64,000 nt of DNA from an uncultured Thiotrichaceae bacterium (GCA_964651445.1 CAZYYW010000001.1:173-64172), one strand, 5' to 3'; positions 22,179 to 49,522 are shown, numbered from the stretch's first letter. Made by a program: numbers and translations. The notes: a model not told the origin generated them from the letters alone.

Positions 22179-25100
22179 GTGCAGGCTAACCATATGTCTG
22201 ATAAAAAACAAGCCGAGATGTCTGATAAAAAACAAGCCGAGCTAAAACGGCAGATTGCTCAACTAAAAAAAACCAATCGCACATTAAACGAGCGCATTGC
22301 TCGTACCATAAACAATGCCAATGAACCCGACAATCTACCCACAACTCTCTCTCAGACAGACGACAGTATAGGCAAAAAAACACACATAGTAACAACAAGT
22401 CGTCCCGAAATAAAAAAAGCTGCGGCTGTAAACAGTAATTTTCTGGCAACCATAAGCCACGAAATACGAACACCCATGAATGGCATTATGGGCATGCTGG
22501 AACTATTGCTTAAAACACCGGTGAATGAACGTCAACGCCATCTAGCCAGTACCGCACATAATTCTGCTGAATCCTTGTTGATGGTTATAAATGACATCCT
22601 CGATTTTTCCAGGATTGATTCTGGCAAATTACAGTTGTGCAAAGACAGCTTCAACCTGCTCCACTTGTTTAACGATGTTGTTGACCTGATTAGCGACAGT
22701 GCGCAGAAAAAAAATATCCGGTTAATTGTTCAACTCCCTGAAACAATAGAACATGATGTTATTGGCGACTCTGTTCGGCTACGTCAGGTAATGCTAAACA
22801 TACTGAACAATGCCATCAAGTTTACCGAACAGGGCGAGGTTGAACTATGCGCCACAATCGATACGCTAGACCGGTGTATGAAGGTCAACGTCGTGGTGCG
22901 CGATACGGGCATAGGCATAGAAACCGCCCGTCAACCCATTATTTTTGAACCATTCGAACAAGAAGGCAGCGCTCGTTCAACCAGAAATTTTGGTGGTACC
23001 GGTCTTGGCCTGGCGATTTCCCGCGATCTCATTGCACTTATGGGGGGTGAAATTACGCTGCAAAGTACGCTTGGTGAAGGCAGCGCCTTTCACTTTTCTA
23101 TCGAGCTAGGCATTGCAAGCCATACCACGAATGAAAAGGAAGTCAATAATGCTCGTATTTTACTGGCAGAAGACAACCATCTTAACCAGGAGGTCATGCG
23201 TGAGCAGTTAGATGTTTTAGGTTTCAACATTGAAGTCGTTGAAAACGGTCTACAGGCTCTTGATGCGATCAAACAAAATACCTATTCGCTGGTTTTTATG
23301 GACACTCATATGCCGTGCATGGACGGTTTTGCAGCCACCGAGGCCATTCGAACTTTTGAGCAGGAACAACGCCGCCCGCCTGTGCCTATTATCGCTCTAA
23401 CCACTGACACTTCTGCAAACATAGAAGCGCATTGTCAAAGAGTCGGCATGAATGCATCGATGGCAAAACCGTTTTCCATTGACGACATCGAAAATGTTTT
23501 AAGTGCATGGTTATGTAGCACAACGCAAACAAAACCTGCGATAAAAGATAAGGGAGAGCCTTCCATTGTAGACAGCGCAGAAGTGTTAAATATGGCGACC
23601 ATTGAACAGCTACGAAAACTGGGTAATAACAGTGGCAAGGATACTCTGGGCAATGTTATTAAACGCTTTCAGGAATCTTCTCTAGCTCAGCTACAAAGCA
23701 TGCAGCTTGCCGTAAAAAATAAAGATTACAGTGATTTTTCAGCCATCGCGCATGCTTTGAAATCTTCCAGCGCAACCCTTGGTGCCAGTCTGGTTTACAA
23801 CACCAGCGCCGAATTAGAACAACTCGCCAATGCCAATAAAACTGACGCCATCGCACAACACGTCATTCGACTGGAAAGACAATTACAGCTTTCTTTACAG
23901 ACCTTATATGATTTAAAAACAGCGCCCTACCCTGTCGGTACACCCACCGTTGGCAGCGGTCAGTATCTACTGCTGGTCGATGATGATATGGCTACACTGG
24001 AAATCATTCAAACGGCAATGCAACAATTCGGCTACAGAATAGACAGTGCCAGCAGCGGCCAGCAGGCACTGCAACTGATGCTCAATAATACGTATGATCT
24101 GGTCATTACCGATTTGCAAATGCCTGGCATGGACGGCTACGCACTATGCAGTGCTATTCGTGTGAACTACAGCCCAGAAACGCTGCCTATTTTGATTCTC
24201 ACCAGCACCGCTGATGATGTACAGGTACAACATGCTTACGAAACCGGCATTAGCAACTTTATTGTTAAACCGGTTAACTTGCTCAATCTTGCTTATACCG
24301 TGCTCTTTACTCTGCAAAATACGCGCAATGCTAAGGCGCTGTGGCATAACCAGCAATTACTGGAAGCGGCTGAGCATACCGCCCAAGTCAGCCACTGGTC
24401 ATGGGAAATAAACAAACAACAAATACAGTTCTCTCGCCATTTGCAACGCTACTTCAGTCAGCCTCTTGACGGCGTAACAAGTCTCGATGAATTAATTGCC
24501 GCCATTGGCAATAAAAGCATGCACAGCGCAGTAAAATCCTGCCTCAGCAATGGTCGTGAATCCAGTTGGGAGCAAGAAATTCATCAAACAGAAGCGACGC
24601 CTGCTCGCTATCTTCTACACCGCATTCGCATGGTTAACAGCAAGGATGAAAAACCCATGCTAATAGGCACGGTTCAGGAAATATCTTCCATTCGCCGCGC
24701 TGAACAACGCATTATGGAATTGGCCTATTATGATTCCCTTACTAAACTAAGCAGCCGTTCTAATTTTAACAATCAGCTAAAAAACTTAATTATCAGCTCA
24801 CGTCGGCGCTCTGAAAAATTTGCCTTGTTATACCTTGATTTGGATGAATTTAAAAACATCAACGACAGCTTTGGCCATGATGTAGGAGACCAACTGCTGA
24901 TAGAAGTTGCCAATCGTTTGCGCGAGCTACTTCGTGAATCCGACTTTGCCAGCCGTTTGGGTGGTGATGAGTTCTGCCTGTTAATAAACGATATTGAAGA
25001 CAATCTTTTTGCCGCCAACATTGCTCAACGGTGCCTAGAGTTACTGGCACTACCCTTCACTCTAGCCGGTACAACACTCACGCCTCATGCCAGCATCGGC

Positions 25101-26033: not shown

Positions 26034-26852
26034 ATGACGGTACACCATATTATCAAGCAGGAAATAGCACGTCAGCCTGACCTTCCGGTTTTACCCCCCG
26101 GCATATCTTCATTATTAAAAATGCTAAACGACGATGATATTGGCTACAGCGAGCTTGCCGACAAACTTGAAAATTTTCCATCCATTGCAATAAAAATAGT
26201 CTCAACGGCCAATTCTGCCTGGGCATCACCGGGTACGCCTATTACCACATTACGCAGTTGCTGCGCGCGCATTGGTGTCCCCGTGGTTCGCAGCATCGCC
26301 ATTGCAATCGCGGTGGCGCAAATATTTGACCCCAGTCGCTGCCCGGCATTTGATGCCAAAAAATATTGGTTAAGCGCCCTGTTAACTGCTGAAGCTGCAC
26401 AGCTATGTGCAAAAGACAATAATGACGTCTGTTCCGACACCGCCCGATTAGCCGGGCTGCTGCATAACATTGGTTTGTTATGGCTGGCCACACAAAAACC
26501 CAAAGCAACAAGCAAAGCCATCAACTTTAAAAAAAGCAATGAAGCACTTTCGCTCGCTCACTGTATGGCACAGTATGTAGAAGTGGATTATTTTACTGCC
26601 GGTGGTTATCTAGCCTCCTTTCTCGAACTGCCAGAACAATTGTCCGAGCTTATCGCCTGCCCCGCTTTAAATATAGTGCAGGATGACATCGCTATGCAGA
26701 ATCATCACCGTGCCTTACAGCTCGCCAGCAGCGCACTAACGGCTAACAATACTGCTGAGCATGACGAAATAATAGAGGATCCCTGCTTTGATCCTCTAAT
26801 GCATAAATTACCCGGTATCGAAACCATGGCGCGCAGCCTATTTTTTTCTTAA
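26034..26852 (+). CDS. HDOD-domain protein; start is 4 nt after the upstream stop, so translationally coupled to the HK-GGDEF-EAL gene
   Basis: HDOD signature LPVLPPGISSLLKMLNDDD...; HD-like HNIGLL. Confidence 0.8.
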   Translation: MTVHHIIKQEIARQPDLPVLPPGISSLLKMLNDDDIGYSELADKLENFPSIAIKIVSTANSAWASPGTPITTLRSCCARIGVPVVRSIAIAIAVAQIFDPSRCPAFDAKKYWLSALLTAEAAQLCAKDNNDVCSDTARLAGLLHNIGLLWLATQKPKATSKAINFKKSNEALSLAHCMAQYVEVDYFTAGGYLASFLELPEQLSELIACPALNIVQDDIAMQNHHRALQLASSALTANNTAEHDEIIEDPCFDPLMHKLPGIETMARSLFFS

Positions 26853-26888: not shown

Positions 26889-26913
26889 GAGACCTTTTCA
26901 CGATACAGGTCTC
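26889..26913. terminator. hairpin (GAGACCT-N11-AGGTCTC) between two convergent genes
   Basis: 7-bp inverted repeat read directly. Confidence 0.35.
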
Positions 26914-27722
26914 TATATATCCGGAAGTGCCATCTTATCCAAAACACCCTGCAGAATATCCAGATTGCGATGATAATTGATAATCAGCACACCTTGATCT
27001 TCATTGATATCAACATGTGCGCCAAAGTGTTCGGTTAACCGGGTTTCAAGTGCCAACACATCAGCTGATTTTTTAACGGATGCAGACGGTTGTAACACCG
27101 GCTTATGTGCACGCATAGTTCTTGCCACAGCTTCCGTTTGTTGAACCGTTAGATGCTCATCTTTGATTTGTTGTAATAAAAGTTGTTGTTGTTCCAATGG
27201 CAATCCAGCCATAATTTTTGCATGGCCAAAACCAATCATCGAACATTGTTTAATGTTGTCTAATAAGTGCTTTTCTATATTTAAAATTCGCATCAAATTA
27301 CACACTTCAGAACGGCTTTTCCCAATCAACGCGCCAGCCATTGTGAGGCTAATATTTTGTCTTTTAATACGCTGTTTTAATGCCAGCGCGCGGTCAATAA
27401 AATGCTCCTCAGTATTTATTAGATGTCCGTAATAGCCGTCAATTTCAGCAGAACTTAAATAATCCATATGTTTGACTGACACGGTTTGTTGTTGCAGCAT
27501 CTGAGCTAGTAGCCAGATTTTTGGTGAGCCAAGAATTTCAAAACGTGCCGGAGAATGCGCTAAAGCACGGACATGAACGTCCTCATGCAAACCGTATAAA
27601 CGCGCCCGCTCAAGTTCCTCCACGCTGATTTCTGCTTGCGTTAAACGCTGGGTCCACAATCCCGTTTGAAGTAAGTCGACATCAATTGGCATAACCGTGA
27701 GTATAGCGCAGATTGTTTTCAT
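26913..27722 (-). CDS. ParB-like protein with a degenerate N-terminal CTP/arginine motif (GSPKIWL instead of GERRWRA); canonical ParB HTH and C-terminal dimerisation region
   Basis: HTH GKSRSEVCNLMRILNIEKHLLDNIKQ...GHAKIMAGL matches the ParB HTH; C-terminus VLALETRLTEHFGAHVDINEDQGVLIINY is ParB-like. Confidence 0.6.
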   Translation of the reverse strand: MKTICAILTVMPIDVDLLQTGLWTQRLTQAEISVEELERARLYGLHEDVHVRALAHSPARFEILGSPKIWLLAQMLQQQTVSVKHMDYLSSAEIDGYYGHLINTEEHFIDRALALKQRIKRQNISLTMAGALIGKSRSEVCNLMRILNIEKHLLDNIKQCSMIGFGHAKIMAGLPLEQQQLLLQQIKDEHLTVQQTEAVARTMRAHKPVLQPSASVKKSADVLALETRLTEHFGAHVDINEDQGVLIINYHRNLDILQGVLDKMALPDI

Positions 27723-27890
27723 ATGAAAACAAATGGTATGAAAACTCTATCAAACGGCTGTTGTCACGTCTCATATAAAGCGTGCGAGGCTTCTTCACTG
27801 CCCTGTGTTTCTTCTATTAGAAACAACTGACCGGCGAAAAATACTCAACGAATCCCGCATAAACTTATATATATCAATTAGATACAAAAC

Positions 27891-27907
27891 AATTCAACCG
27901 TTGAATT
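27891..27907. repeat. 17-bp palindrome AATTCAAC-c-GTTGAATT just downstream of parB; candidate partition or operator site
   Basis: Perfect 8-bp arms read directly. Confidence 0.3.
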
Positions 27908-27911
27908 ATTT

Positions 27912-28871
27912 CTATTTAGCAAGAAAACGAGTTAACGCCTTAATTACTGCAGTTTTGTCCGCCACTGCTGCCTTGCTCACCTTAATAGAAATTGCTCCGC
28001 TAGCCGATTGCTTTATCAACACCCCTTTAACATCACCCGCAACCGTGTACGTTTTTTCTACAGGCCGGCTCGAACCACTTTGCACGGCACTCTTACCGAC
28101 AAAAACCAATGTTTTCATTACACTCAATGTGCTGTCTGTCTGCCCTTTAAACTCACGCGCCTTTTCCAAAATCAATTTTTTTGACTTCGCTGATTTGTTC
28201 ATCAAGGAACGCAACATGATCGCCTGTTTAACACTGATCTCAAATTTGTTTGGCAATACAGACGCAATCTCCGGCGCCATGTCTGCTATCGCCATCCAGT
28301 TGGACAATGTGCCCTCACCAATGTCATTTTCAAGACAATAATTTTTCTGGTTTCCAGCATAAATTTCAGAGATAACTTTTTTTGCATTCATCGCTTTTTC
28401 ATACGCCGTTGTATCGTCACGTTCCTGATTTTCACTGCGCATGATTTTATAGGCTTGTTTGTCATCGACGTCTATTAGCGCAATATGAATTTTCTTTGCG
28501 GGAAGATGAGAACAAGCCCAGAAACGTCGAGTGCCAATAATAATCTGATAGGCTTTTTTACCCGCGGGGTCACGCCGTGCAATGACAGCCTGTAATTGCG
28601 TATTTTTTTGTATATCATCAACAAGTGATTTACAATTTTCCATACTGAGACCGTCATAAATACGGTCATTATATTTCCACAAACAGCAATCATCGGTCGA
28701 AACCGTTAGTTCTCGCAGCCCTGCCTCTGCCGCTTCATCCAGTACTGGATTCGGGTTCTGTGAGAGAAACGCCCTACCACGGCTGTGCAAACCTGTTTTA
28801 TGACGCGGTTTGACATCGATGTTTTCCAGGTCAGCGCCTTCTGCAATATCGTTTATTCTTGTTCTAGCCAT
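27912..28871 (-). CDS. parB: ParB/Spo0J family partition protein (plasmid type)
   Basis: N-terminal ParB box IIGTRRFWAC (GxRR motif); follows parA. Confidence 0.8.
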   Translation of the reverse strand: MARTRINDIAEGADLENIDVKPRHKTGLHSRGRAFLSQNPNPVLDEAAEAGLRELTVSTDDCCLWKYNDRIYDGLSMENCKSLVDDIQKNTQLQAVIARRDPAGKKAYQIIIGTRRFWACSHLPAKKIHIALIDVDDKQAYKIMRSENQERDDTTAYEKAMNAKKVISEIYAGNQKNYCLENDIGEGTLSNWMAIADMAPEIASVLPNKFEISVKQAIMLRSLMNKSAKSKKLILEKAREFKGQTDSTLSVMKTLVFVGKSAVQSGSSRPVEKTYTVAGDVKGVLIKQSASGAISIKVSKAAVADKTAVIKALTRFLAK

Positions 28872-28890
28872 TGCTTTATCTCCGGTTTAT

Positions 28891-30072
28891 TTATGCTGTT
28901 TTTATTTTGTTTCTTATGCTCGGCCAGTTTTTCAGCAATTCATGCAACACTTCTTCGCACATCGCATCTACTGAAGCCATGGCGGATCTGAAGCTTTTAT
29001 AACTGGTTGTCTGACCATGAACTTCGAACAGCGTTTTAAATTCACTGGCAGCATTATCGATAGCGGTTGATTCATAGATAATACTCTCCAGCATGTATTC
29101 GTTACCAAAAATGCGACGGGCAAGTGCTAAAATATCATCTTCTGCGCGCGCATATTTCTCGTTGGTGTTGCGTTGTTTTTTCTTGGAAGTCACCAATTTA
29201 ACGAAATCATATTCAATTTGCGTATCATAATGGCCTTGAATTTCATCCAAAGTTTCATGCAACATATTAAAAAACTGTAACGAAGAGGTGAAATCCAACA
29301 TTCTTGGTGGCATCGGCACTAACAAGCTGGTGGCTGCAACCAGAGCATTAATACTGAGCATGCCCAGTGCCGGTGGTGGGTCAATAATAATGACTTCAAA
29401 ATCTTTTTTAATGCTTTCAATGCCTTCTGGCAAATACGAGTAAATCGGTCGTTGCGCATGGTTTGCTGCCACCATGTATTCCGCATTGTAAAGTTGCAAA
29501 TTAGCTGGAATTAAACTCAGATTTTCGATCATGGTGTCGCGTATAGCATAATGCATAGTCCGTTGCTCACCTTCAAAAAAGGGCAGCAAAGTATCATTGG
29601 CATCAATATCCATATCCGGGGTATAGCCAAATAAGGTCGTCGCTGAAGCCTGACTATCAAGATCAATTAGCAGTACACGAAAACCTCGAATCGCCAACCA
29701 CTGCGAAAGATGAACCGCAATGCTGGTTTTACCCACGCCACCCTTAAAATTTTGCACCGCAAGCACTGCAGGGTCTTCACCCGCTTCTAGCCTCGGCATG
29801 GTATTAAAATGACGACGCGCCCGGTTGATTTCTGATAATGAAAAACCACGCGCGTTGGAGGCGTCGCTACGGGTTGCTTCAATGGCACCCTGCTTCTCAG
29901 CATCTCGAATAGTGGTAGGATGTCGTCCAATAAGCCCCGACGCCTCACCTATTTTAAAAGATTTATTAAAACGTTTTTGACCATCCGGACTAAAAATATG
30001 CGTTTTAATATGTTTAATAATTTTGTCAGAACGCTGAACCAAATCAGCTAGCTCGTTTATGGAAACAGTCAT
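28891..30072 (-). CDS. parA: type Ia ParA/SopA-like partition ATPase with an N-terminal HTH extension
   Basis: Deviant Walker A NFKGGVGKTS; about 100-aa N-terminal extension with an HTH, as in P1 ParA / F SopA; 393 aa. Confidence 0.9.
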   Translation of the reverse strand: MTVSINELADLVQRSDKIIKHIKTHIFSPDGQKRFNKSFKIGEASGLIGRHPTTIRDAEKQGAIEATRSDASNARGFSLSEINRARRHFNTMPRLEAGEDPAVLAVQNFKGGVGKTSIAVHLSQWLAIRGFRVLLIDLDSQASATTLFGYTPDMDIDANDTLLPFFEGEQRTMHYAIRDTMIENLSLIPANLQLYNAEYMVAANHAQRPIYSYLPEGIESIKKDFEVIIIDPPPALGMLSINALVAATSLLVPMPPRMLDFTSSLQFFNMLHETLDEIQGHYDTQIEYDFVKLVTSKKKQRNTNEKYARAEDDILALARRIFGNEYMLESIIYESTAIDNAASEFKTLFEVHGQTTSYKSFRSAMASVDAMCEEVLHELLKNWPSIRNKIKTA

Positions 30073-30123
30073 GACCCCTCACTTTTACGATTTGAAAATG
30101 GTATTTTGTATCGTTATACCTGT

Positions 30124-30139
30124 AGATAACAAGTTATCT
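30124..30139. promoter_or_regulatory. perfect palindrome AGATAAC-AA-GTTATCT in the divergent parA/rep intergenic region; candidate ParA or Rep autoregulatory operator
   Basis: Read directly; type Ia ParA proteins autoregulate via their N-terminal HTH. Confidence 0.4.
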
Positions 30140-30266
30140 TTTGATTTTTATTATACATACTACTAAGATAATTCAAATACATTATTCGTTTTTCTTGACA
30201 ATATATGGCATTATTCGGTATAAATAGCGGATATAGAGCTGTTTTTCAGGATTAAAATAATAATAA

Positions 30267-31379
30267 TTGCATAATTTGATTGCGACACACAAAAATCAAA
30301 ACGTGCCGGAGGGTAGGATAGTGCCAAATAAAGCCATGCAACGTGTACTCAAACGAGGCAAAGAAGCAGAACAACGCATTCAGCAGAGCAGGGCGCAAGT
30401 TGCCGAATTGCAACCAGAGACCATACAACTAAAGCCTGAAACCAAGAAAGAAAGCCGCGCTCGTAATGGTATGACCAGCGAAAAAATAGTTGCGCTGGCA
30501 GAAAACGAAATCTACAAAAACGAACAGATTGGCTTATTCGACGCAATACCTGTTTCCGAGCGAAAAGTTTTTCCAACCTTACTCACACGCATTCCTATCT
30601 TCATGCCCATCACTAAGGCCAAACAAAAAAAATTATTGGATGAAGATAATGCACTGCCATTTGAAACACCATTCGGCAAGGGAAAACGTTATGGTGCTAA
30701 TTTAACCGTGTTTGATGAAGACGTACTTTACGCTTTGTCACGTTTATCCCATAAAAAACTAATCGGGCCGCACAATAACATGCCCATTAAAGTATCTAAG
30801 ATTTACAAAGCCAATAAGAAAGGCAGCGTAAATGTCGATACCGTTGTTTGCACTGTCACCAATATTCTGGATGCCCTCAGCATGTCTAAAGGCGGAAAAA
30901 TGCGTAAAGACGTTATCGATTCACTGGAACGTTTAACCTCAACCACCTTGATTTTGTCACTCAAAAAAGAAGACCGTTACCTGGGTAAATGTGAAATAGG
31001 AAAACCCATTAAACTCGTCGATATTGAATGGCAGTTGTATTCCACCGATGGCATTATTTATGCACAATTCTCACCGATAGTTACGTACTGGTTGGAAAGT
31101 GAATACACCTATATAGATTGGGAAAGCCGTCGTAAACTTAAAAATCGTCTGGCCAAAGCATTACATCGTTATCTAAGTTCTCAACCCAAAGATTTCTTTA
31201 AATTAAACAAACTTGACGACATTTCAGCCTCTATTGGTTACCACGCACGAAAATGTGACATGAAAAGTGCTTACAGCAAAGCCATTGATGAATTAATAAA
31301 AGTTGGATTTTTAATCGACGCCGAAATACTGGGAACGGGCAGGGCGGATCCTTTTAGATTGTACGCCACTAGAAAGTAA
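30267..31379 (+). CDS. putative iteron-binding plasmid replication initiator (Rep). The true start may be GTG near 30321 or ATG at 30336, which follow the RBS GGAGGG
   Basis: Position: divergent from parAB, immediately upstream of the iteron arrays and DnaA box. No unambiguous family motif recognised. Confidence 0.55.
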   Translation: MHNLIATHKNQNVPEGRIVPNKAMQRVLKRGKEAEQRIQQSRAQVAELQPETIQLKPETKKESRARNGMTSEKIVALAENEIYKNEQIGLFDAIPVSERKVFPTLLTRIPIFMPITKAKQKKLLDEDNALPFETPFGKGKRYGANLTVFDEDVLYALSRLSHKKLIGPHNNMPIKVSKIYKANKKGSVNVDTVVCTVTNILDALSMSKGGKMRKDVIDSLERLTSTTLILSLKKEDRYLGKCEIGKPIKLVDIEWQLYSTDGIIYAQFSPIVTYWLESEYTYIDWESRRKLKNRLAKALHRYLSSQPKDFFKLNKLDDISASIGYHARKCDMKSAYSKAIDELIKVGFLIDAEILGTGRADPFRLYATRK

Positions 31380-31395
31380 AGTCTGAAAAAAGCAA

Positions 31396-31521
31396 CGTAC
31401 TAAAATAGGTTTAAGGCTTCAGCAAAGCGGTATTATTACTCAAAAGCTGTGTACTAAAAACGGTTTTAGCGTTTTACAATACCGATATAAAACATAAAAA
31501 AACGTACTAATAACGGTTTTA
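31396..31521. repeat. iteron cluster A: three 19-bp direct repeats, consensus CGTACTAAnnnCGGTTTTA
   Basis: Copies begin at 31396, 31449 and 31503. Confidence 0.8.
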
Positions 31522-31622
31522 GTACTTAACAAAGAAATGAAATAACATCGTCTATAACAACATTTCTTTATTAAATCGTTGATTTTTTTAGCTATTTTCA
31601 ACATTGCTATAGTAAATAAAAT

Positions 31623-31631
31623 TTATCCACA
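31623..31631 (+). promoter_or_regulatory. consensus DnaA box TTATCCACA inside an AT-rich stretch between the two iteron clusters
   Basis: Exact 9/9 match to the DnaA box consensus, flanked by an AT-rich tract (31561-31620). Confidence 0.5.
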
Positions 31632-31638
31632 ATCGTGC

Positions 31639-31744
31639 GTACTAAATACGGTTGAACAGTGTACTAATGTCGGTTTTATAGCGTACTAACGATGGTTTTA
31701 TTGCGTACTAAAAAGGGTTTAACAACGTACTAAACACGGTTTAA
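31639..31744. repeat. iteron cluster B: five 19-bp direct repeats at 21-22 bp (two helical turn) phasing; candidate oriV
   Basis: Copies begin at 31639, 31661, 31683, 31704 and 31726, all of the form (C/T)GTACTAAnnnnGGTTnnA. Confidence 0.85.
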
Positions 31745-31907
31745 CAACAATAAGTAACAACTTAAGCTATTGATTTTATTGGTTTTATTGAACAGCTTTA
31801 AACCTTTAGTCTTGTATAGTCTTTATTAAGTCTTTCTTTAGTCAAACACAGTCAGTGTTTTATAAAAGACTTATACATAAAAAACAAACCAAGGGTGAAA
31901 GCACTTT

Positions 31908-32798
31908 TTATAAATAGTAATAAAGTTTTAATGACTCAGATAAAGGATGTGTTTTATCAATTTTGCCATCACGTGGTAAACGTATAATTTCATCCTGTTG
32001 CATTTTAAGTAAAGTTTGTTCTCCATTATGAATAACAGAACCAATACGGGATGATTGTTCAATATTATAAGGGTACAAAATAGGTAAGTAGGCGGATACT
32101 TGATCTGGACGATTTTGGCGGCGCTGTCGATCGACATAACTAATATTTGCTCGAGTATGGCAGGCTCGCTGCCGATATCGCGCAACAAAACTATTAATCG
32201 GTAATTGTTGTAATTTTTCAATGGCCGTATCGTTATTTCTTTTGGCTGCAAAAGCCAAAGCCTGCTTACGTGATAAGCGTTCAACTATATGACTACCTTT
32301 TGAAACAGTAAAACCTACCTTCAAGGGCATTTCTGCCAAGACAATAATTTTACGGGTAGACTGTTTGATGTGAAGTTGACTCAAACCAGCAGCACCCAGT
32401 GCTTCACGTATGATCGGTGAACGTTTAATTTCAGTAAAAGCACTGGCAACTAATTCATTACGGTCATTTTGTTTGAGATCTTTAATGGCTGTTTTTAAAG
32501 CAAACTTACAATGATTAACCTGTGTGACACATAATAGAGTATCGCGACTAGCCGCCATTAAACCAAAACGGGTAAATGATTCTTTTGGGTTGATACCTTT
32601 AACCAGCGTCAGTGCCTGGTAGATAGAAATAATGGCGTCACTGGCACAAAGGGATTTTTCTTCATGGTATTGAATCCATGCGGGAAGGCCATTTTTTGCG
32701 TCTAGGCGTATGTGGCTTCCCAGTGTTTCTAAAACAGTAACCAATGCTTTATAAGCATCAATTATGGCTATGCGTTTTGCTGAAAGTAGAGTATTCAT
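31908..32798 (-). CDS. hypothetical protein adjacent to oriV (replicon-associated; function unknown)
   Basis: 296-aa ORF, basic C-terminal half; no family recognised. Confidence 0.4.
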   Translation of the reverse strand: MNTLLSAKRIAIIDAYKALVTVLETLGSHIRLDAKNGLPAWIQYHEEKSLCASDAIISIYQALTLVKGINPKESFTRFGLMAASRDTLLCVTQVNHCKFALKTAIKDLKQNDRNELVASAFTEIKRSPIIREALGAAGLSQLHIKQSTRKIIVLAEMPLKVGFTVSKGSHIVERLSRKQALAFAAKRNNDTAIEKLQQLPINSFVARYRQRACHTRANISYVDRQRRQNRPDQVSAYLPILYPYNIEQSSRIGSVIHNGEQTLLKMQQDEIIRLPRDGKIDKTHPLSESLKLYYYL

Positions 32799-33055: not shown

Positions 33056-33547
33056 ATGTACCATATGATTAAAACTTTACTCGCTGGCTTGTTATTTATT
33101 GGATGTTCATCCTCGGTACTGGCAACAGAGAAAGAGGTTTGGCAGTGCAAGGATTTACATACTACAAATAACGAAATTATTGTTACCGCAACTGCGTTTA
33201 AAACCTCTAATCACGGTCTTATCTCGGTAGCAGGTACGGAACAAACGGCACACTATGAAGTCGCTGGTTTCAACCGGCAGTGGAAATTTGGTAGTAAATC
33301 TACGGATAATTCATTTAAGTATTTATTCAGAATAAACCCTAACGGTGTCGCACATTATTTTGATATCTCTGATACAAAGGAAGGGGAGAGTATTGAATCT
33401 GAGATGGTTTTAATTTGCAACCAAACAGGATCTGCCTGGTCAACTAATGTACGCAGTAAACCACGTGATTCACACCGAGATTCTGTGAACTCTATTAACG
33501 CTGTGCCCTGCTTACCAGGATTACTGGTAATAAACTATAGTGAATAA
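33056..33547 (+). CDS. hypothetical secreted protein (signal peptide)
   Basis: N-terminal hydrophobic signal LLAGLLFIGCSSSVLA. Confidence 0.4.
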   Translation: MYHMIKTLLAGLLFIGCSSSVLATEKEVWQCKDLHTTNNEIIVTATAFKTSNHGLISVAGTEQTAHYEVAGFNRQWKFGSKSTDNSFKYLFRINPNGVAHYFDISDTKEGESIESEMVLICNQTGSAWSTNVRSKPRDSHRDSVNSINAVPCLPGLLVINYSE

Positions 33548-37433: not shown

Positions 37434-38471
37434 TTACTCTGCATCATTATTAATTAGCGGAAAGTGCAAACTTCCAGCCGCTTTTCGCATTTCTTTTATT
37501 TCTCGACGATCATAATTGGCGGTTGTTTTAGGGTCACTATGGCCCGCTAAAGCCTGCGCCATTCTAAGATCACCGGTTTCTTCTAAAATGGTAGAGATAA
37601 ATGTCTTCCTGAAATCATGTGGTGAAATCTCAGCTATACCTGCCTCAGATTGGCGTTTTTTAACGACATTGTAGATTGCCTGATCGGATAGTCGACCGGC
37701 TTGAATTTTTCCATTTTTAAGAACGCGGTAGAAGAGGGCACCATCATGATCACCGCGAAGTTCTAACCACTGTTTAACCGCTATCACTGTGCCATCATCT
37801 AAAAACAACATGCGCTCTTTATTGCCTTTACCGATCACGCTGGCTTCCTTTAATTCAAGATCAATGTCCTCTACATTTAGATCTGCCACTTCAGAACGAC
37901 GCAAACCACCGATGTACATCAAGCCAAAAATAGCCAGGTCTCTATAGGCAGCTGGTGACCGTTTTTCTGGGCTGTCATCCTTTTTGTTTTTAACTTTTAA
38001 GAAATCGTTTAAGCACGCATCGACCAATGCCTTAATCTCTCCTTGACTCATCATCCGTCCTGTTGGCAAGCGAACACCTGCAACCATTTTCACCAACATA
38101 AGACGTTGGTAATCATCCGCTGACATTAATTTCATCGCCATCGCAGCCCTCACGGTGCCACGAACGGCTGAAATAATAGCGTTAATAGTGGTATGAGCGT
38201 ATTTTTGTTGCTGTAACACGCCAATAAGCGTTTGCAGGTGTTCATACTGAATCGAAGCCCAGGGTGTATGTTGATAACCTTCATAATCAAACAAGATGGC
38301 TATTTTATTCATATGACTTTTTACCATACGCTTGGTCGCTTCAGATTTTCCTGACAGATAAGTATCGACCGGGTTGGCGTATATAGAAACTTCACCGTGT
38401 AAAGTCGGTAATGCAGGAATCTCTTTTGAGCTGCTTTTTATTGAGGTGAATCTAGAATCACGACGCGCCAT
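37434..38471 (-). CDS. tyrosine site-specific recombinase / integrase
   Basis: C-terminal catalytic region HDFRKTF...LAGHSDPKTTANYD (R, H-x-x-R, Y). Confidence 0.85.
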   Translation of the reverse strand: MARRDSRFTSIKSSSKEIPALPTLHGEVSIYANPVDTYLSGKSEATKRMVKSHMNKIAILFDYEGYQHTPWASIQYEHLQTLIGVLQQQKYAHTTINAIISAVRGTVRAAMAMKLMSADDYQRLMLVKMVAGVRLPTGRMMSQGEIKALVDACLNDFLKVKNKKDDSPEKRSPAAYRDLAIFGLMYIGGLRRSEVADLNVEDIDLELKEASVIGKGNKERMLFLDDGTVIAVKQWLELRGDHDGALFYRVLKNGKIQAGRLSDQAIYNVVKKRQSEAGIAEISPHDFRKTFISTILEETGDLRMAQALAGHSDPKTTANYDRREIKEMRKAAGSLHFPLINNDAE

Positions 38472-38497: not shown

Positions 38498-39598
38498 TTA
38501 GTCGATGAGCAACGAATAACGGGTGCTGCGACCACCACCTGGTTCTTTTTGTAATACACCGCGCTGCATTAGATCGAGGATATCGCGATAAGCGGTATCT
38601 TGAGAACACTTTGTCATCTTTGCCCATTTTGAGGTACTTAGCTTGCCTTCAAAATCATCCAGTAATCGATTTAAAACTTTTATCTGTCGCTGGTTAAAAG
38701 GTACTTTAGCAAAGCGCTCCCAGAAACGAGCCTTTGCCAGAACATCGCTTAAGGTGTCTTGTGTACCCTCGATTGCGCGTAATAGGCAATTTAAAAACCA
38801 CTGTTGCCAGCGACTGACATCAAGCTCACCTTTTTGTGTCCATTCCAACACATTGTAATAATCTTTTTGTTGAAGACGGATTTGTGCTGACATACTATAA
38901 AAACGTTGGCCTGTTTTTTCTGAGCGAGCGAGAGCCATATCTGCTATCGCGCGAGCAATACGACCATTGCCATCGTCAAACGGGTGAATAGTAACAAACC
39001 ATAGATGAGCCAGACCCGCTATGAGCAGTGGGTCGATGTCTCCAGGATGCTCAAACCAGTGCAGAAATTCTTCTATCTCATTAGAGACACTTTTGGCTGC
39101 TGGCGCTTCGTAATGCACTTTTTCATGCCCAATTGCACCTGAAACCACCTGCATTGGACCTGTAGTGTCATCTCGCCATTGCCCTACACGGATTTTATTC
39201 ATGCCACTTCTGCCCGTTGGAAATAGTGCAGCATGCCAGCCGAATAACCGCTCTTCAGTCAGTGCATCACAATATCTCCCTGTTGCATCAAGCATCATCT
39301 CAACCACACCCTCAACATTCCGCTCAGCAGAGACAAGTCCCTCTATATTCATACCGAGTCTGCGCGCGATTGATGAGCGTACTTGCTCTGGTTGAAGGTT
39401 TTCGCCTTCAATTTCACTTGTCTTAACAACATCTTCCGTCAGGATGCGGAGATGCGCTTCGTTCGATAATTCAAATCCGAGTGCCTCCATTCTGCCCAGC
39501 AGCCGACCTTGTTCACGTGACACTTGTGTCAATAGTTTTGTTATACGGCTGTCATCCCAGGTAAAAGTCGGCCAATCAGATTTCTGCCATAAATACAT
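38498..39598 (-). CDS. Fic/DOC family protein (adenylyltransferase-type FIC motif) with a C-terminal winged-helix
   Basis: FIC motif HPFDDGNGRIARA. Confidence 0.85.
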   Translation of the reverse strand: MYLWQKSDWPTFTWDDSRITKLLTQVSREQGRLLGRMEALGFELSNEAHLRILTEDVVKTSEIEGENLQPEQVRSSIARRLGMNIEGLVSAERNVEGVVEMMLDATGRYCDALTEERLFGWHAALFPTGRSGMNKIRVGQWRDDTTGPMQVVSGAIGHEKVHYEAPAAKSVSNEIEEFLHWFEHPGDIDPLLIAGLAHLWFVTIHPFDDGNGRIARAIADMALARSEKTGQRFYSMSAQIRLQQKDYYNVLEWTQKGELDVSRWQQWFLNCLLRAIEGTQDTLSDVLAKARFWERFAKVPFNQRQIKVLNRLLDDFEGKLSTSKWAKMTKCSQDTAYRDILDLMQRGVLQKEPGGGRSTRYSLLID

Positions 39599-39879: not shown

Positions 39880-41586
39880 TTACGCGCTGATTTCGCCTTG
39901 AAACACAGTACAACGATTTCGCCCAGAATGTTTGCTCTGATAAAGTGCCTGATCCGCTCTTTTGAGAACAATTTGCTTGGTATCATCGGCCGTGAACTCA
40001 GCAAGGCCGACAGAAGCGGTCACGGTTATTTGCTCACCCTGATATTTGAAATTACAGCTTAGTAATGTTTCTCTAAGTTTGTTATTAAATGCTAATGCTT
40101 TATCGATAGGAGTATCCGGCATTAATAGGACAAATTCTTCACCGCCAATTCTGGCGAACATATCTGTATTGCGTATTCTTTCCTGGATGACATTGGCGAA
40201 AAGTTTTAAAACCCGGTCGCCCACATCATGCCCATAGGTATCATTAACATTTTTAAAGTGATCTATGTCCCACATCGCGAGTGTTAGTGGTGATTGTAAG
40301 CGTTTGTAGCGACTGGCTTCGACGGCAATTCTTTCCTCATAAGCCAGCCGGTTGTATACGCCTGTTAAAGAGTCGCGTAATAATTGGCTTTTACTTATTT
40401 CAAGCTCAGTTTTTAATCTTTCTGATTCATTTTGAGTGGAGCTAAGTTCTGCAATAATTTGCGTATACCCTTGCATGGATAGTTTTTCTTTTTCCTGTGC
40501 TGCATCTTTATTATCTTCAACCTGTTTCCTAATATCCTTTAAGTGTACAGATATGTCTTTTTTAAGATCAACGATATTACTTGAAGAAGATACTTTATCC
40601 TGTATATAACCAACACTGGCATTCACTGTTTCTTCTAAATTAGTAGAGCGATTGACTGATTCTTCCTGGTTTAAGAGTGTCAATTCCATGTAGTTTTTAA
40701 TCTCAGATAACTGCTTACTAATTTTAAGAATAAACTCTTGCAAGTCCATATTTTCCAATTGAACTGAATTAACGAAATTATTGACAAGGTCAAGTAATTC
40801 AGAAAATAGATTTTTACGATATTCATTACTATCTACAGGATTAACAAGTATTTTTAAAAGTGCTATCTGTTGCGATTTCATTTTTGTAGGCAGTGCAAGT
40901 TGATTAACCATATCAGTAAGATGTGAATAGAAAGATACATTGTGCGATTGTTTATTTTCGATATTAAGGTTGTTATCGCCAGCTTTAATTGTCGTTATGT
41001 ATTTTGACAATTCAATGACAATATCCTGCATAACCTGTGTTGCGCTTTGGCTATTCCGATTATATTGAAATCCCGTGCTAGTAGTAACGTCATTAATAAA
41101 ACCATTAATAGTTTTATTAATGACGTCTTCATCAGCATGAGTGCTTTTAGTTAATGAATTATTTATGATGGTAATTATTTCCGCACCGGTCTGCTTTTCA
41201 TCGCGATCGTTGTTTACCAGTGTATCGATTATGACCTTGCAATCGTCAGAACAATCGACTTCCTTCATGCCTTGCTTAAGTGCAGAACAGATGACGGAAT
41301 TTTCTGATAAACCTTTCTGAAAGTCAGAATGATTGGTTAAAACAAATAGTTTGTCTAATTGCGAATCCAAGATTTCTAAATTAATATTTTTCTGCGTCGA
41401 TGAGGTAATGCTTTTTAGTAATAAATTGACCTCGTTATCATGATTGTTAAAGCCTGCAGCAAGCCTGATAACCGATTTTTTCAATAATTTTCTGGTGGTA
41501 TTTAATTGCGCTTGTGAAGTACTCAACAACTTGACGGATTTCTCGTAAATATTCTTGATTTCATTTTCTGGTGAATAAAGACTCAT
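39880..41586 (-). CDS. GGDEF diguanylate cyclase with a long N-terminal coiled-coil/helical domain (HsbD-like position)
   Basis: RIGGEEF active site; I-site RNTD; about 380-aa helical N-terminal region without TM segments. Confidence 0.85.
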   Translation of the reverse strand: MSLYSPENEIKNIYEKSVKLLSTSQAQLNTTRKLLKKSVIRLAAGFNNHDNEVNLLLKSITSSTQKNINLEILDSQLDKLFVLTNHSDFQKGLSENSVICSALKQGMKEVDCSDDCKVIIDTLVNNDRDEKQTGAEIITIINNSLTKSTHADEDVINKTINGFINDVTTSTGFQYNRNSQSATQVMQDIVIELSKYITTIKAGDNNLNIENKQSHNVSFYSHLTDMVNQLALPTKMKSQQIALLKILVNPVDSNEYRKNLFSELLDLVNNFVNSVQLENMDLQEFILKISKQLSEIKNYMELTLLNQEESVNRSTNLEETVNASVGYIQDKVSSSSNIVDLKKDISVHLKDIRKQVEDNKDAAQEKEKLSMQGYTQIIAELSSTQNESERLKTELEISKSQLLRDSLTGVYNRLAYEERIAVEASRYKRLQSPLTLAMWDIDHFKNVNDTYGHDVGDRVLKLFANVIQERIRNTDMFARIGGEEFVLLMPDTPIDKALAFNNKLRETLLSCNFKYQGEQITVTASVGLAEFTADDTKQIVLKRADQALYQSKHSGRNRCTVFQGEISA

Positions 41587-41588
41587 AG

Positions 41589-42497
41589 TTACCTACCATT
41601 AGGGATGGTTACACACACTTTGTTTCCGCTGCCAATATATTTTACTTCTTTAAAACTGATCAAATTTGCCAGCGCAATACCTCTACCATGACTATCGAAT
41701 GCTCTACTTGGGCTAATTTCCATATACTGGTGCCAATCAAAGCCTTCTCCTTGATCTATTATCAAAATATTAATTTTTTTGTCACTACGACTAAATTCAA
41801 TAGTCACGTGCTTGTCTCTATTTATCGGCAAGTTTATTCTACGCTTAATCTCATTGTCCCATTCACCAGCGGCATTTAATTTTGATTTCTCAGCATATCC
41901 AATCGCTAGATTTCCATGTTCAACTGCATTAACAATTAATTCAGTTAATCCAAGAATAACATTGTCTGATTCAGGGCAAGCATTTGCTAGCAAAGCGGCA
42001 AGATTTCGACCTTCACTTAATGTCTTAAAGCAAAATATTCCGTGATCCATCATTTGTAATGTTTGAGCAGATTGTTTTAGACTTTCCTGCATATCCATGT
42101 ACTGCTGGTAGTCACGGATAGCTGTCGTTGTAATAGCAATTAGTGTTTGTTGGTCGTACGGCTTGGATATGTAGTAATGCGCACCGGCTGTTAGCCCTTC
42201 TAGCATCGGTTCTTTTCCTGCTTTCGCGGTTTGCATAATAACCGGAATCTTATTTGTTTTATCATCTGATTTTATTGCTAATAGTACGTCCATTCCATTT
42301 ACGCCTGGCATCATCCAGTCCAATAGAACAGTACAAAACTTATTAGGCGATTCCTGCAAAAGCAATAAGGCTTTCTCACCCGAGCCTACACAAACAGTTT
42401 CTATATCAATTTCACTAAGATATTCTTGAATGATTTCGAGATTAAATTCTTCGTCATCAACAACTAAAACAACCGGTTTTATATCATCAATAATCAT
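41589..42497 (-). CDS. receiver domain fused to a GHKL anti-sigma-factor-type serine kinase (RsbW/SpoIIAB-like)
   Basis: Canonical REC (VLVVDDEEFN, LLDWMMPGVNG, TAKAG, SKP); N-box ELIVNAVEHGN; G1 IIDQGEGFD; G2 GRGIALA. Confidence 0.75.
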   Translation of the reverse strand: MIIDDIKPVVLVVDDEEFNLEIIQEYLSEIDIETVCVGSGEKALLLLQESPNKFCTVLLDWMMPGVNGMDVLLAIKSDDKTNKIPVIMQTAKAGKEPMLEGLTAGAHYYISKPYDQQTLIAITTTAIRDYQQYMDMQESLKQSAQTLQMMDHGIFCFKTLSEGRNLAALLANACPESDNVILGLTELIVNAVEHGNLAIGYAEKSKLNAAGEWDNEIKRRINLPINRDKHVTIEFSRSDKKINILIIDQGEGFDWHQYMEISPSRAFDSHGRGIALANLISFKEVKYIGSGNKVCVTIPNGR

Positions 42498-44162
42498 CTA
42501 TATGCCTATCTGTTTGTGACTACAAACAATAGCCTCCAGACAATTCCCTGTGTTGTTTTCGAGAGTTAGTTCGTTAAGCTTGTAAGACAAGGAATATTCC
42601 TTGTCTTTTTTGTCATTGCTTTTCTCATCTAGTAGGCAATATGCCAAATCATTAAGATTTATTTCTTTGCCGCTATCCTCCATTTGAATGAGCAGAGAAG
42701 GAAAACCATTATGGCTAACCTTCTTTATTCCAATCTTTACGTAATGCATACTATTAGAGGTGTATTTTTCATGATTTTTTGTCCACGAACGTTCTACAAT
42801 AACGTTTTCATACAGCGCAGACATGATGTTAGCTAATGTCTTAGTTGTTAAATGCAAGCCTGAAATTTTTTGTATTTCATCAATAACGATAGGAACTGGA
42901 TTTAGTTCATGCAAGCTGCGCCCTCCTAGTTCCATGTACCAACACCAGTTACTGTTATACGATATTTTTTTATATTGATGGTTGTCAACTTCTTTACTGA
43001 GCATCAAACTATTTGTACAAGGTATACAAGCAAGCGTGACATCGTCAACTGGTTTTATATCACCACAAAAATCATTAAAACAAGCAACGATTTCCGTAAA
43101 AACAGACTTATCTTCAACAGTCTCATTCAAACAACTTTCTAATCTATTTTCACCAAACATATCATTATTTTTATTAAGGGCTTCAGTCAACCCATCTGTA
43201 AACAAAATTAATTGGTCACCAGGCGTAATATTGAATGATTCCATTCTATAGTTGTTTGACAATGTATCGATAATGCCAAGTGGTAAGTGTGAGGATTTTA
43301 TTTTATGTTTAATATTTCCATTACCAATACCTCTTAAGTAAATATCAGGCATGCCACCATTCCATATAGTCACTTGCTTAACATCACTTGAAATTCTTAA
43401 TACGCTGCATGCCAGAAACATACTGGTAGGTAAAAGAGACAGGAGTTTGCTGTTTATGCTCTCAAGAATGCAGGCCAGATCAAAGCCTTTTTCGGTCATT
43501 GCGCTAAATACATCGGCTACGGGTAACGCACCAATTGCTGCTGATAATCCATGGCCAGTAAAATCGGCTAGTAAGATATTCAGGCTACCGTCAGGATGGC
43601 GGGCTATTAAAAATAGATCACCACTAAAAATTTCTTTCGAGCTACTTAAAAAATGTATTTCATCGAAGTGGATGCATCTTTGACTTATCGCGTCTGATAA
43701 TATTCTCTTTGCGAGAATCTGCTCGTTTATTGAATTATTGTAGAGAACTGTTAATTCACCGATTTTGTCTAGCGATGATATTCTTGCGTTTATGGCAGCA
43801 GAAGTAACGGGTTTAAATAAAATATCATCTGAACCAGCGGTGGCACAAATGGCTAAGCGCTTACTGTCATCTGCTGAAGCAATGATAATGATAGGAATAT
43901 ATGATTCACCAATTTTGATTCGCAAGGAGCGGACAAGATCTTCACATTTAGCGTCATCAAAATCTACATCAATCAGTATATATGATATCTCCCACTCCTG
44001 TAGATAGCGAAAAACATGCTCTGCAGTACTTGCCCGCAAAGAGATGATACCTGAATGCTCTAGTGTGGTTTTAATACAAGCATTTATTTGTTGTGAACAG
44101 CTAACCACAAGCGCATATCTACATTCTTTTGTATCTTGATCATAGATAGGTAGAACATTCAA
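42498..44162 (-). CDS. HsbR-like protein: atypical receiver, PP2C (SpoIIE/RsbU) phosphatase, C-terminal GHKL kinase-like domain
   Basis: PP2C motifs GDLFLIARHPDG...LADFTGHGLSAA and FTDGLTEA; C-terminal N-box-like ALYENVIVERS and G1-like IQMEDSGKEI; N-terminal REC lacks the acidic pair (VVSCSQQ). Confidence 0.75.
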   Translation of the reverse strand: MNVLPIYDQDTKECRYALVVSCSQQINACIKTTLEHSGIISLRASTAEHVFRYLQEWEISYILIDVDFDDAKCEDLVRSLRIKIGESYIPIIIIASADDSKRLAICATAGSDDILFKPVTSAAINARISSLDKIGELTVLYNNSINEQILAKRILSDAISQRCIHFDEIHFLSSSKEIFSGDLFLIARHPDGSLNILLADFTGHGLSAAIGALPVADVFSAMTEKGFDLACILESINSKLLSLLPTSMFLACSVLRISSDVKQVTIWNGGMPDIYLRGIGNGNIKHKIKSSHLPLGIIDTLSNNYRMESFNITPGDQLILFTDGLTEALNKNNDMFGENRLESCLNETVEDKSVFTEIVACFNDFCGDIKPVDDVTLACIPCTNSLMLSKEVDNHQYKKISYNSNWCWYMELGGRSLHELNPVPIVIDEIQKISGLHLTTKTLANIMSALYENVIVERSWTKNHEKYTSNSMHYVKIGIKKVSHNGFPSLLIQMEDSGKEINLNDLAYCLLDEKSNDKKDKEYSLSYKLNELTLENNTGNCLEAIVCSHKQIGI

Positions 44163-44518
44163 TGCCCAACCCCGACTTTATCCCTCGTTTCAGTATTGAT
44201 TCCACAAGTATAATTGATGGTAAATAACTGCTCAAAATTAGCTACTTTCAAAATGGTATCAACTTGTTTGCTGGGGCGTTCTATAAATACTGCGCCACCA
44301 TGACACTTTGCATGCTCACGCAGCAACAGCAACATGCCCAATGCAGAACTGTCCATATAATTAGTATCGCTTAAATCAACGTAGTAGGACATGCTGTCTT
44401 GGCCTGTAATTCGACGATAGCTATCCCTGAATGCTTGGGACACTTTATAATCAAATCGTCCACTTATATTGATGTGTACTTTTTTTCCGTCGCTAGACAC
44501 TTCTTGACTTACAGACAT
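44159..44518 (-). CDS. STAS-domain anti-sigma-factor antagonist (HsbA/RsbV-like)
   Basis: 119 aa; STAS fold with conserved phospho-serine region DSSALGMLLLL; 4-nt overlap with the downstream gene. Confidence 0.8.
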   Translation of the reverse strand: MSVSQEVSSDGKKVHINISGRFDYKVSQAFRDSYRRITGQDSMSYYVDLSDTNYMDSSALGMLLLLREHAKCHGGAVFIERPSKQVDTILKVANFEQLFTINYTCGINTETRDKVGVGH

Positions 44519-44751
44519 AATACAGGCTCCCAGTTTCTTTTAGAAATAACACTACTACTGAAACTATCGACCATCTGTGGATAATGTTTAGTGGTTTTTA
44601 TAAAATCCAGGTTTTTAAATCATACTGCCGGACAATGTTGCTTTCGCAATATCAACAAAGCAGCTTCATTGCGACATCCGTTAGACGACAGTGAGATAGA
44701 TAAAGCCGTGCCATACTCGGCGTATCGAACTAACTCAAAGTAAGTAGGTAG

Positions 44752-46662: not shown

Positions 46663-47118
46663 TAGCCTATCCTCTTGAGGGTCAATCTTGCAAGTTGATC
46701 AATAATCATTAATGACACGTCTTTGACACTGGTCATCCCCTCGTTTTCTGCGTAGGTGAAATCTACGAATACCATTACTATAGTTTGATACATCACTGTG
46801 GTAAGCCAGTTAAAATGCTTTTAATGCCATTTTCGACAGTGCTTTTTCAGTGATTAACACCCTATTTTAAATCGCCATGTCGTATCTATCGGCTGATATA
46901 ACAATAACTTTACCCGTACTGCTGTGGTGACAAATTACCGACTATAAAAATAAAAAATGCAAACTTCATGCCAATTTTTAAATTTAAAAAAGAAAAATAA
47001 ATGTGACACTCAATAAGGCCTAGTTGAGAGCTAAAGAACAACCTTGTAGACAAAATTTATAGAAATGTATGACTTCAGATAAATGCTTGAATAGGCATTT
47101 CAAGGCTGTGCCAGCATT

Positions 47119-49335: not shown

Positions 49336-49522
49336 TTTTTATCCCACACCCATATTATATTTCTGAAAATGAAACGAGCAATGTATTATATACTCAAGTA
49401 AATCATACTATAGCTGTCATCGCCACATGATTATGTTTCTTTAGTCGAAAATGCTCATTCGTAAAATAATGACAATGCTAGCCATAATGCATTGCCCATT
49501 CTAAACCTCACAGGCTTTTATT

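Follow-up and report, generated by a model that had tools for sequence, protein, structure and literature searches.

We analyzed a 64-kb stretch of DNA from an uncultured Thiotrichaceae bacterium (referred to as the window here), in which the initial annotation had recognized a P1/F-like plasmid replicon embedded in a flagellar and signaling locus. Judging from its sequence and from comparison with relatives, we read the segment at 26.9 to 31.9 kb as an intact, selection-maintained plasmid-type iteron replication origin together with its initiator and partition genes. The parts that had been proposed, namely, parB′, parB, parA, rep, the iterons, and a DnaA box, are all present in the places assigned to them, and the best explanation for this module is a complete theta-type iteron replicon of plasmid ancestry, whose function has been kept by selection and which would replicate autonomously. 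The initial call of a complete replicon of the iteron type that is partitioned by a type Ia system is supported. Although the class of iteron replicons is itself known, this module combines a new Rep family with a RepE/RctB-like predicted fold, an origin layout like that of RK2 oriV, and type Ia partition with an extra ParB-like gene. We find the module, with the same layout of its origin, again in some 100 metagenomic loci and on closed plasmids from “Candidatus Tenderia” and Methylomonas (relative loci are labeled L001 and so on), and every sufficiently long relative carries both the four genes and the origin.

Layout of the origin

The iteron motif GTACTAANNNNGGTT occurs in 8 exact copies between positions 31397 and 31741, all on the plus strand, which bears out the proposed arrangement of 3 + 5 iterons after rep. 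When up to 1 mismatch was allowed, the whole window contained 10 sites versus 0.84 expected, and no shuffle reached 10. The first group is made up of three spaced iterons (31395 to 31520, plus strand), with cores at 31397 to 31411, 31451 to 31465, and 31504 to 31518 and spacings of 54 and 53 bp, while the second group consists of five tandem iterons (31637 to 31744, plus strand), with cores at 31639, 31661, 31683, 31705, and 31727 and thus a spacing of 22 bp in all four intervals. Both groups hold their positions in the origin alignment, and directly repeated iterons in helical register next to rep are conserved in the relatives. A perfect DnaA box, TTATCCACA, is located at 31623 to 31631 on the plus strand and is one of only two perfect copies in the 64 kb. 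Among the 20 relative loci with a Rep identity of at least 64%, 19 have a DnaA box 226 to 300 nucleotides after rep (449 in L004 and L005).

The initial annotation had also described an AT-rich tract that is bracketed by the two iteron groups and holds the DnaA box. This description fits the window, where the tract is 79% AT and the box is perfect, but not the family as a whole, since the AT content of the tract ranges from 48 to 79% across relatives and amounts to only 48 to 52% in GC-richer hosts. The tract that follows the five iterons, on the other hand, is 65 to 79% AT with conserved TAGTC repeats and contains 3 to 5 TAGT repeats in 14 of 14 loci, high-GC hosts included. In the window, it extends from 31776 to 31843 and carries four (T)AGTC repeats ∼10 to 11 bp apart (31807, 31817, 31828, and 31839), which coincide with invariant TAGTCTT columns of the alignment. 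Because this tract stays AT rich in all 14 loci, while the one between the iteron groups does not, we assign the role of probable DNA unwinding element to the TAGTC tract, on the right-hand side of the five iterons. A DnaA box (19 of 20 close loci) combined with an AT-rich element with short repeats (14 of 14 loci) is what is expected of iteron-containing theta replicons.

Further conserved columns of the origin alignment mark two candidate binding sites for integration host factor (IHF). The first, TAAATCGTTGATT (31572 to 31584), fits the IHF consensus YAANNNNTTGATW; the second, TAAGCTATTGATT (31763 to 31775), contains invariant TTG.TT columns. Directly to the right of the TAGTC tract, a stem-loop (AAACAC-agtca-GTGTTT; 31844 to 31860, plus strand) is followed by a run of T residues. 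Our hairpin survey of the family loci found a hairpin of at least 5 bp at the equivalent location in 24 of 35 nonredundant loci, mostly directly after the last TAGTC repeat. The stems differ and covary between loci, while the loop is of the AGTCA/AGTAA type and echoes the AGTC core of the repeats. The hairpin may serve in single-strand recognition or in priming. A search with Rfam returned no RNA family in the region from 26 to 40 kb. Taken over 10 aligned loci, the layout reads as follows: rep stop codon, two to three spaced iterons, IHF-like site, DnaA box, five iterons at 22-bp spacing, second IHF-like site, AT-rich tract with four TAGTC repeats, and hairpin.

With the unwinding element placed there, the order of the origin is that of RK2 oriV and not that of P1 or F. 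The oriV of RK2/RP4 (IncP) likewise presents DnaA box(es), five tandem iterons with a spacing of ∼22 bp, and an AT-rich unwinding element with four short repeats (PMC4081077). The two origins differ in detail: RK2 has four DnaA boxes versus one in the window, its unwinding element consists of TAAACnTTnTTTT 13-mers as opposed to TAGTC-type repeats at ∼11 bp, and only in the window does rep lie immediately upstream of the origin. Like the window, RK2 has additional iterons farther upstream. In P1, the origin (oriR) is located upstream of rep, and the control iterons (incA) are located downstream. The window departs from this arrangement, as both of its iteron groups are downstream of rep, with zero iterons in the upstream region from 30.07 to 30.32 kb. 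Moreover, the unwinding element of P1 and F is found between the DnaA boxes and the iterons, whereas that of the window likely lies beyond the iterons.

By analogy to RK2 and F, Rep would bind the five iterons at 22-bp spacing and host DnaA the adjacent box, while the IHF-like sites would bend the DNA. The AT-rich tract with its TAGTC repeats would then melt, and the host helicase would be loaded there. The three spaced iterons beside rep probably limit copy number via titration or handcuffing.

Initiator and partition genes

The rep gene (30321 to 31379, plus strand) encodes the putative initiator. Its likely start is the GTG codon at 30321, which stands behind GGAGG and yields a protein of 352 amino acids, and not the TTG codon at 30267, as indicated by gene callers and by conservation of the GGAGG; with this shifted start, rep is divergent from parA, as had been annotated. 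Rep of the window has no match in NCBIfam, a match to Pfam RPA that stays below the threshold, and no match to Pfam Rep3_N (PF01051), which leaves it outside the Rep_3 family of P1 and F by this model. Of 38 Rep homologues, 10 reached Rep3_N, with E values of 1.4e-4 or weaker and no bit score reported at the cutoff, and a single one matched Pfam TrfA (PF07042; E value of 0.0056), so the family does not qualify as TrfA by this model either. A weak tblastn match links the C-terminal quarter of Rep to annotated TrfA genes (E values of 7e-5 and 2e-4).

The fold is more informative. An AlphaFold (AF2) model of Rep built from the 38 homologues reached a predicted local distance difference test (pLDDT) score of 88, and Foldseek matched it to domains 2 and 3 of RctB (the best structural match) and to RepE54 of plasmid F (∼2e-5 to 3e-4). 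A search of solved structures with the sequence profile gave no match, and similarity to RctB is absent at the sequence level. We then find in the model and the family profile the tandem winged-helix arrangement (WH1-WH2) that is typical of initiators of iteron replicons. The profile retrieved 103 clusters (50% identity) at an E value of ≤1e-30 among 1.84 billion representatives, and its distant matches pass the Pfam thresholds for Rep3_N and RPA. Since the confident model resembles RepE54 and RctB and the profile reaches Rep3_N and RPA, Rep is, as far as a predicted structure can tell, a twin winged-helix iteron initiator from a small uncharacterized family that is kin to the P1/F family only at the superfamily level. 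The label “P1/F-like” is thus appropriate at that level, but it fits neither the Pfam assignment of Rep, which fails the thresholds for both Rep_3 and TrfA, nor the order of the origin.

Nearly all Rep homologues are unnamed metagenomic proteins, but closed plasmids from Methylomonas, “Ca. Tenderia,” Thiodictyon, and Bermanella also encode homologues, with 29 to 38% identity. A scan of genome contigs with the single Rep protein returned nothing, while the alignment-based scan did find relatives. Our literature search found no description of this Rep family, nor of flagellum-bearing megaplasmids of methanotrophs. Two of the homologues (P0045 and P0050) additionally carry the N-terminal domain of DnaA (PF11638; best E value of 4.5e-12), which hints at direct recruitment of the host replication machinery.

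On the other side of rep, a divergent control region (30073 to 30320) contains a TTGACA...TATAAAT promoter-like element for rep, the palindrome GATAACAAGTTATC, and the GGAGG ribosome-binding site, as seen in an alignment in which a block of ∼100 bp is nearly invariant among the window, L028, L043, L008, and L009. A consensus scan for promoters and terminators gave no more matches than in shuffled sequences and missed the conserved rep promoter because its second hexamer ends in A.

Beyond this region follow the partition genes, all on the minus strand. The first, parA (28891 to 30072), encodes a type Ia partition ATPase of 393 amino acids that aligns end to end with the RepA model TIGR03453 (2.9e-77) and with the SopA model (6.8e-62), although below their equivalog cutoffs. 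Its N-terminal extension holds a MerR-type helix-turn-helix (HTH) match at residues 38 to 86, in agreement with the annotation as a type Ia ParA with an N-terminal HTH. The parB gene (27912 to 28871) encodes a protein that retains the arginine patch (GTRR in the ParB alignment), matches Pfam ParB_N and TIGR00180 (6e-23), and shows the N-terminal ParB/Srx domain and HTH of type Ia ParB proteins. Exact lookups found neither ParA nor ParB of the window on record. This large, HTH-bearing ParA sets the system apart from the IncC/KorB partition system of RK2, while its full-length alignment with SopA brings it close to that of F.

The second ParB, which had been described as degenerate, keeps its HTH_ParB (1.4e-16) and C-terminal dimerization (ParB_C; 1.7e-9) domains but has lost the GxRR patch, which is replaced by GSPK (YEILGSPK) in the ParB alignment. 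Its gene, parB′ (26913 to 27722, minus strand), has no equivalent in P1 and F and is conserved in the Tenderia plasmid as well as in L028, L043, L008, L006, and L004. Its orientation is reversed in L001 and L004, and it is therefore a separate transcription unit. The spacer between parB′ and parB, at the 3′ end of parB, contains a palindrome (27891 to 27907) of the form AATTCAAC-N-GTTGAATT, which reads AATTCAAC-C-GTTGAATT (AATTCAACCGTTGAATT) in the window. Its core has one exact match in the window, and 9 other loci each contain the full palindrome once, at an unchanged position, making it a candidate parS, i.e., centromere. The centromeres of P1 (parS) and F (sopC) are also located downstream of parB. 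The candidate of the window shares this location but is a single palindrome and not a repeat array. ParA and ParB would segregate the replicon via this palindrome, while ParB′, having no arginine patch, would act as a conserved third DNA-binding component, probably with a regulatory role. Together with the hairpin, whose loop displays the repeat motif, this protein extends the standard model of iteron origins in a way that can be tested.

Relatives, selection, and status of the replicon

All four module genes are full length compared to their plasmid relatives, and these genes are the only ones that the window shares with most relatives. Rep homologues occur on closed plasmids, as said above, and ParA is matched by more than 5,000 plasmid records at E values of <1e-40, so the search against plasmids suggested in the initial annotation was positive for both proteins. 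The plasmids of “Ca. Tenderia electrophaga” (CP013100), Methylomonas sp. strain DH-1, and Methylomonas koyamae encode the same Rep family with 35 to 38% identity. The closed 106.9-kb Tenderia plasmid has the same four genes in the same order and a similar layout of iterons, DnaA box, and AT-rich, TAGT-rich sequence, while on the 278-kb DH-1 plasmid rep is divergent from parAB, as in the window, and ParA is shorter (302 amino acids). The rep genes of the Tenderia and Methylomonas plasmids are annotated as hypothetical proteins only, and we found no experimental work on them. Unlike in the window, no flagellar genes were found near the Tenderia and DH-1 modules in the stretches examined. The anatomy of this Rep/origin family, whose members appear in databases just as “hypothetical protein,” is described here for the first time. 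Given that the family resides on large plasmids of methanotrophs, sulfur oxidizers, and electroautotrophs, it could supply native-origin vectors for such hosts.

The metagenomic relatives have plasmid-type flanks as well, with genes for a MOBH relaxase, a coupling protein, toxin-antitoxin systems, and restriction-modification. For instance, L043 has KorB-like and TraG-like genes nearby. None of the 32 loci subjected to a terminal-overlap test for circular contigs gave an overlap. Two contigs of near-identical length, L001 (JGI; 187,778 nucleotides) and L014 (NCBI; 187,775 nucleotides; Thiotrichaceae metagenome-assembled genome NORP24), carry Rep with MOBH-type relaxase and AcaB/DUF2857 genes and probably represent a complete conjugative megaplasmid of ∼188 kb. 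A gene for a protein of ∼215 amino acids with no known domain is found downstream of the origin in L043 (13240 to 13887), L006 (12341 to 12985), L010, and L034 (55 to 72% identity); no counterpart was detected in the window or in L028.

To follow the module among syntenic relatives, we located these via the neighboring kinase of 1,283 amino acids. L028 runs from flgE to flgA, through GGDEF, histidine kinase, large kinase, and HDOD genes, directly into parB′-parB-parA-rep with an intact origin, and to the right of the origin it has a homologue of a 163-amino-acid protein of the window (33056 to 33547). Its flanking proteins are 50 to 78% identical to those of the window, compared to 91% for ParA, 84% for Rep, and 76% for ParB. 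At third codon positions, the identity is 44 to 51% in parB, parA, and rep and 36 to 44% in parB′, i.e., near saturation, as in the flanking genes, while 82 to 98% of codon positions 1 and 2 are identical in parB, parA, and rep. Proteins that are conserved while third positions approach saturation show that the module has long been under purifying selection.

A second line of evidence is the GC skew at third codon positions (GC3 skew), which we computed per gene on the plus strand. We applied it family wide because the cumulative GC skew of the whole Tenderia plasmid is too mosaic to read a replication mode from it. On the left side of the origin and in the module itself, the GC3 skew is negative whichever way the genes point, being largely independent of orientation, and it is positive to the right of the origin in the window (31.9 to 37.2 kb), L028, and L043. 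The inversion that was to be looked for near 31.6 kb is thus present at the origin. In 20 of 22 nonredundant family loci, the difference in skew between right and left is positive (P = 3e-6), and we therefore conclude that the origins of this family behave as real, bidirectional origins. Long-term purifying selection and the skew flip together speak for an active origin.

What kind of molecule carries the module is a separate matter. We see an even chance that the module is the working origin of a large secondary replicon, i.e., a low-copy megaplasmid or chromid with a flagellar and cyclic di-GMP (c-di-GMP) signaling cluster. Plasmid-derived origins that drive large replicons with chromosomal-type genes exist in Vibrio chromosome 2 (RctB/ori2) and the Pseudoalteromonas chromid (RepA/ori2). 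With respect to the hallmarks of chromids, the window has a plasmid-type replication and partition system, and the GC3 of the module equals that of the flanking genes in both the window and L028 (the comparison being with the flanks); the gene content of the window comprises only flagellar, signaling, and zinc uptake genes. Several observations weigh against a secondary replicon. Rightward of the origin, the GC3 skew remains positive for just 5.5 kb, turns back to negative at 37.3 kb, and stays so from the integrase to the end of the window, including the native-looking motAB-fliA-flhGFA block, and the flagellar operons on both sides of the module all point leftward. In three relatives with the same left synteny (L029, L030, and L032), HDOD is followed directly by efflux or other genes and the module is missing, and the closest relative, L031, has 167 noncoding bases and no parB′ end after HDOD, where its contig ends. 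The module tree groups the window with L028, L043, and L009 in a single clade without a resolved internal order, so that the window and L028 are not recovered as sisters and the plasmid-like L043 nests among them. No conjugation genes, housekeeping genes, or dif site were found within the window. FlgI relatives with 78 to 79% identity are located on contigs of 1.0 to 1.55 Mb, which is only mildly unfavorable because large plasmids and chromids often carry flagellar genes as well (229 plasmid records match). For the return of the skew at 37.3 kb, a recent rearrangement on a secondary replicon, a terminus near the origin, and a plasmid block in a leftward-replicating chromosome arm are all possible explanations.

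The last of these corresponds to a plasmid-derived block of ∼11 to 13 kb integrated in the chromosome between the flg and flh regions, an alternative that is plausible, although we lean against it. Beginning with parB′ at 26.9 kb, the block would extend to ZnuB (37.3 kb) or, with the integrase and Fic genes included, to 39.6 kb, and it would have entered by a recombinase-mediated or cointegrate-type insertion, its replicon genes being intact because the insertion is recent or because they are still in use. An origin can remain in use after such an event, as ori2 does in naturally fused Vibrio chromosomes. Consistent with this scenario, both outer flanks have negative GC3 skew and leftward operons, and only the right part of the block is positive, ending at a tyrosine recombinase gene. 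A module-free site exists in L029, L030, and L032, which gives the window, together with the recombinase (37434 to 38471), the two features expected of an integrative element; as these three loci group with one another, a single gain or a single loss would be enough to produce the pattern. Related flagellar clusters are found on megabase contigs, other plasmid backbone genes are absent from the 64 kb, and in distant family loci rep has homologues of orf296, the integrase, and Fic in its vicinity, making the larger extent plausible. However, we found neither a tRNA gene nor flanking direct repeats or attachment sites around the module, and L028 shares the left junction although its synonymous sites have reached saturation in comparison with the window. 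The skew flip inside the block and the intact iterons should not have survived in an ancestral insert that is replicated passively, yet both persist. Recent independent insertions would require a site-specific target, and inspection by eye revealed no evident similarity between the junction spacers.

A particular form of the secondary-replicon reading, in which the terminus lies next to the origin, seems unlikely to us, although it would account for the skew reversal. In Pseudoalteromonas chromids, ter2 and dif2 are close to ori2 (PMC7858055), which resembles the reversal 5.5 kb from the origin, except that our search for dif in the window gave no site above chance. The contig would then be part of a chromid of an uncultured marine gammaproteobacterial lineage, probably from a hydrothermal or sediment habitat, that carries a polar flagellar regulon and replicates nearly unidirectionally. 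Two forks would start at 31.6 to 31.85 kb; the rightward one would halt after ∼5.5 kb at a terminus or multimer resolution site beside the tyrosine recombinase (37.3 kb), and the leftward one would copy the rest. Under this model, the covarying hairpin with its AGTCA loop might act in single-stranded form as a target of Rep or a primase. If true, this would be a second independent case of the Pseudoalteromonas arrangement, with an unrelated initiator family. If the contig is a chromid at all, a flagellar regulon would be inherited on a plasmid-derived replicon, and the window might be a new example of replication with the terminus next to the origin.

An assembly artifact, in which a piece of a plasmid and flagellar DNA from a chromosome were fused into one chimeric metagenomic contig, is very unlikely. 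The source is apparently a metagenome-derived contig (80.6 kb), the skew changes abruptly at 37.3 kb, and L031 breaks just after HDOD. However, an independent Logan assembly (L027) spans the HDOD-parB′ junction with 100% protein identity, and L028, which stems from a different sample and a different species, shows this junction as well; a chimeric left junction is rejected on these grounds. Least probable of all is a decaying, nonfunctional remnant of an old plasmid insertion, which has only the chromosomal look of the surrounding genes in its favor and is ruled out by protein conservation at saturated third positions, four full-length genes, a perfect DnaA box, 8 iterons that all fit the consensus, and L028, where the block sits at the same site with its origin intact and without the decayed iterons that the initial annotation had named as the sign of a dead module.

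Neighboring genes

As initially described, the module is embedded in a flagellar and signaling locus. To its left, flgN/A, flgD to flgL, fliC, and fliD (2 to 18 kb) are followed by c-di-GMP and two-component signaling genes. To its right come orf296, the gene for the 163-amino-acid protein, a porin gene, znuAB, the tyrosine recombinase gene, and the Fic gene, and then further signaling genes in a stretch of lower GC content, with motAB, fliA, flhG, flhF, and flhA at 53 to 64 kb.

The genes directly to the right of the origin may belong to the plasmid-type block. orf296 (31908 to 32798, minus strand) has no Pfam or NCBIfam match and thus no known domain, but it is a recurrent neighbor of the family origin, with homologues of 24 to 30% identity adjoining rep in L069, L070, L082, and L086. 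In L069 and L070, the orf296 homologue is followed by a homologue of the tyrosine recombinase (37434 to 38471, minus strand; Pfam Phage_integrase), which is located where the GC3 skew returns to negative and could be either an integrase or a multimer resolution enzyme. The Fic/DUF4172 protein (38498 to 39598, minus strand; Pfam) has a homologue with 38% identity near rep in L074 and is possibly part of the same block. Because homologues of all three lie near rep in distant family loci, the block may extend to 39.6 kb, and the gene content of these loci fits the earlier suggestion that the integrase and Fic travel with the module.

Beside the integrase and Fic genes begins the stretch of lower GC content (39880 to 52000; 0.35 to 0.40 versus 0.42 to 0.47 nearby), which contains response regulator, SpoIIE, GGDEF/EAL, and kinase genes and may have been acquired separately as an island. 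A gene with TPR and sulfotransferase domains (4910 to 6433), located between flgL and the flagellin gene, suggests modification of the flagellin or filament. The gene for the hybrid kinase/GGDEF/EAL protein of 1,283 amino acids starts with a perfect 24-bp tandem duplication (22194 to 22241), so that the N-terminal sequence MSDKKQAE occurs twice. Finally, three HDOD paralogues are encoded in the window (26034 to 26852, 57291 to 58130, and 58259 to 59158), two of them directly upstream of fliA.

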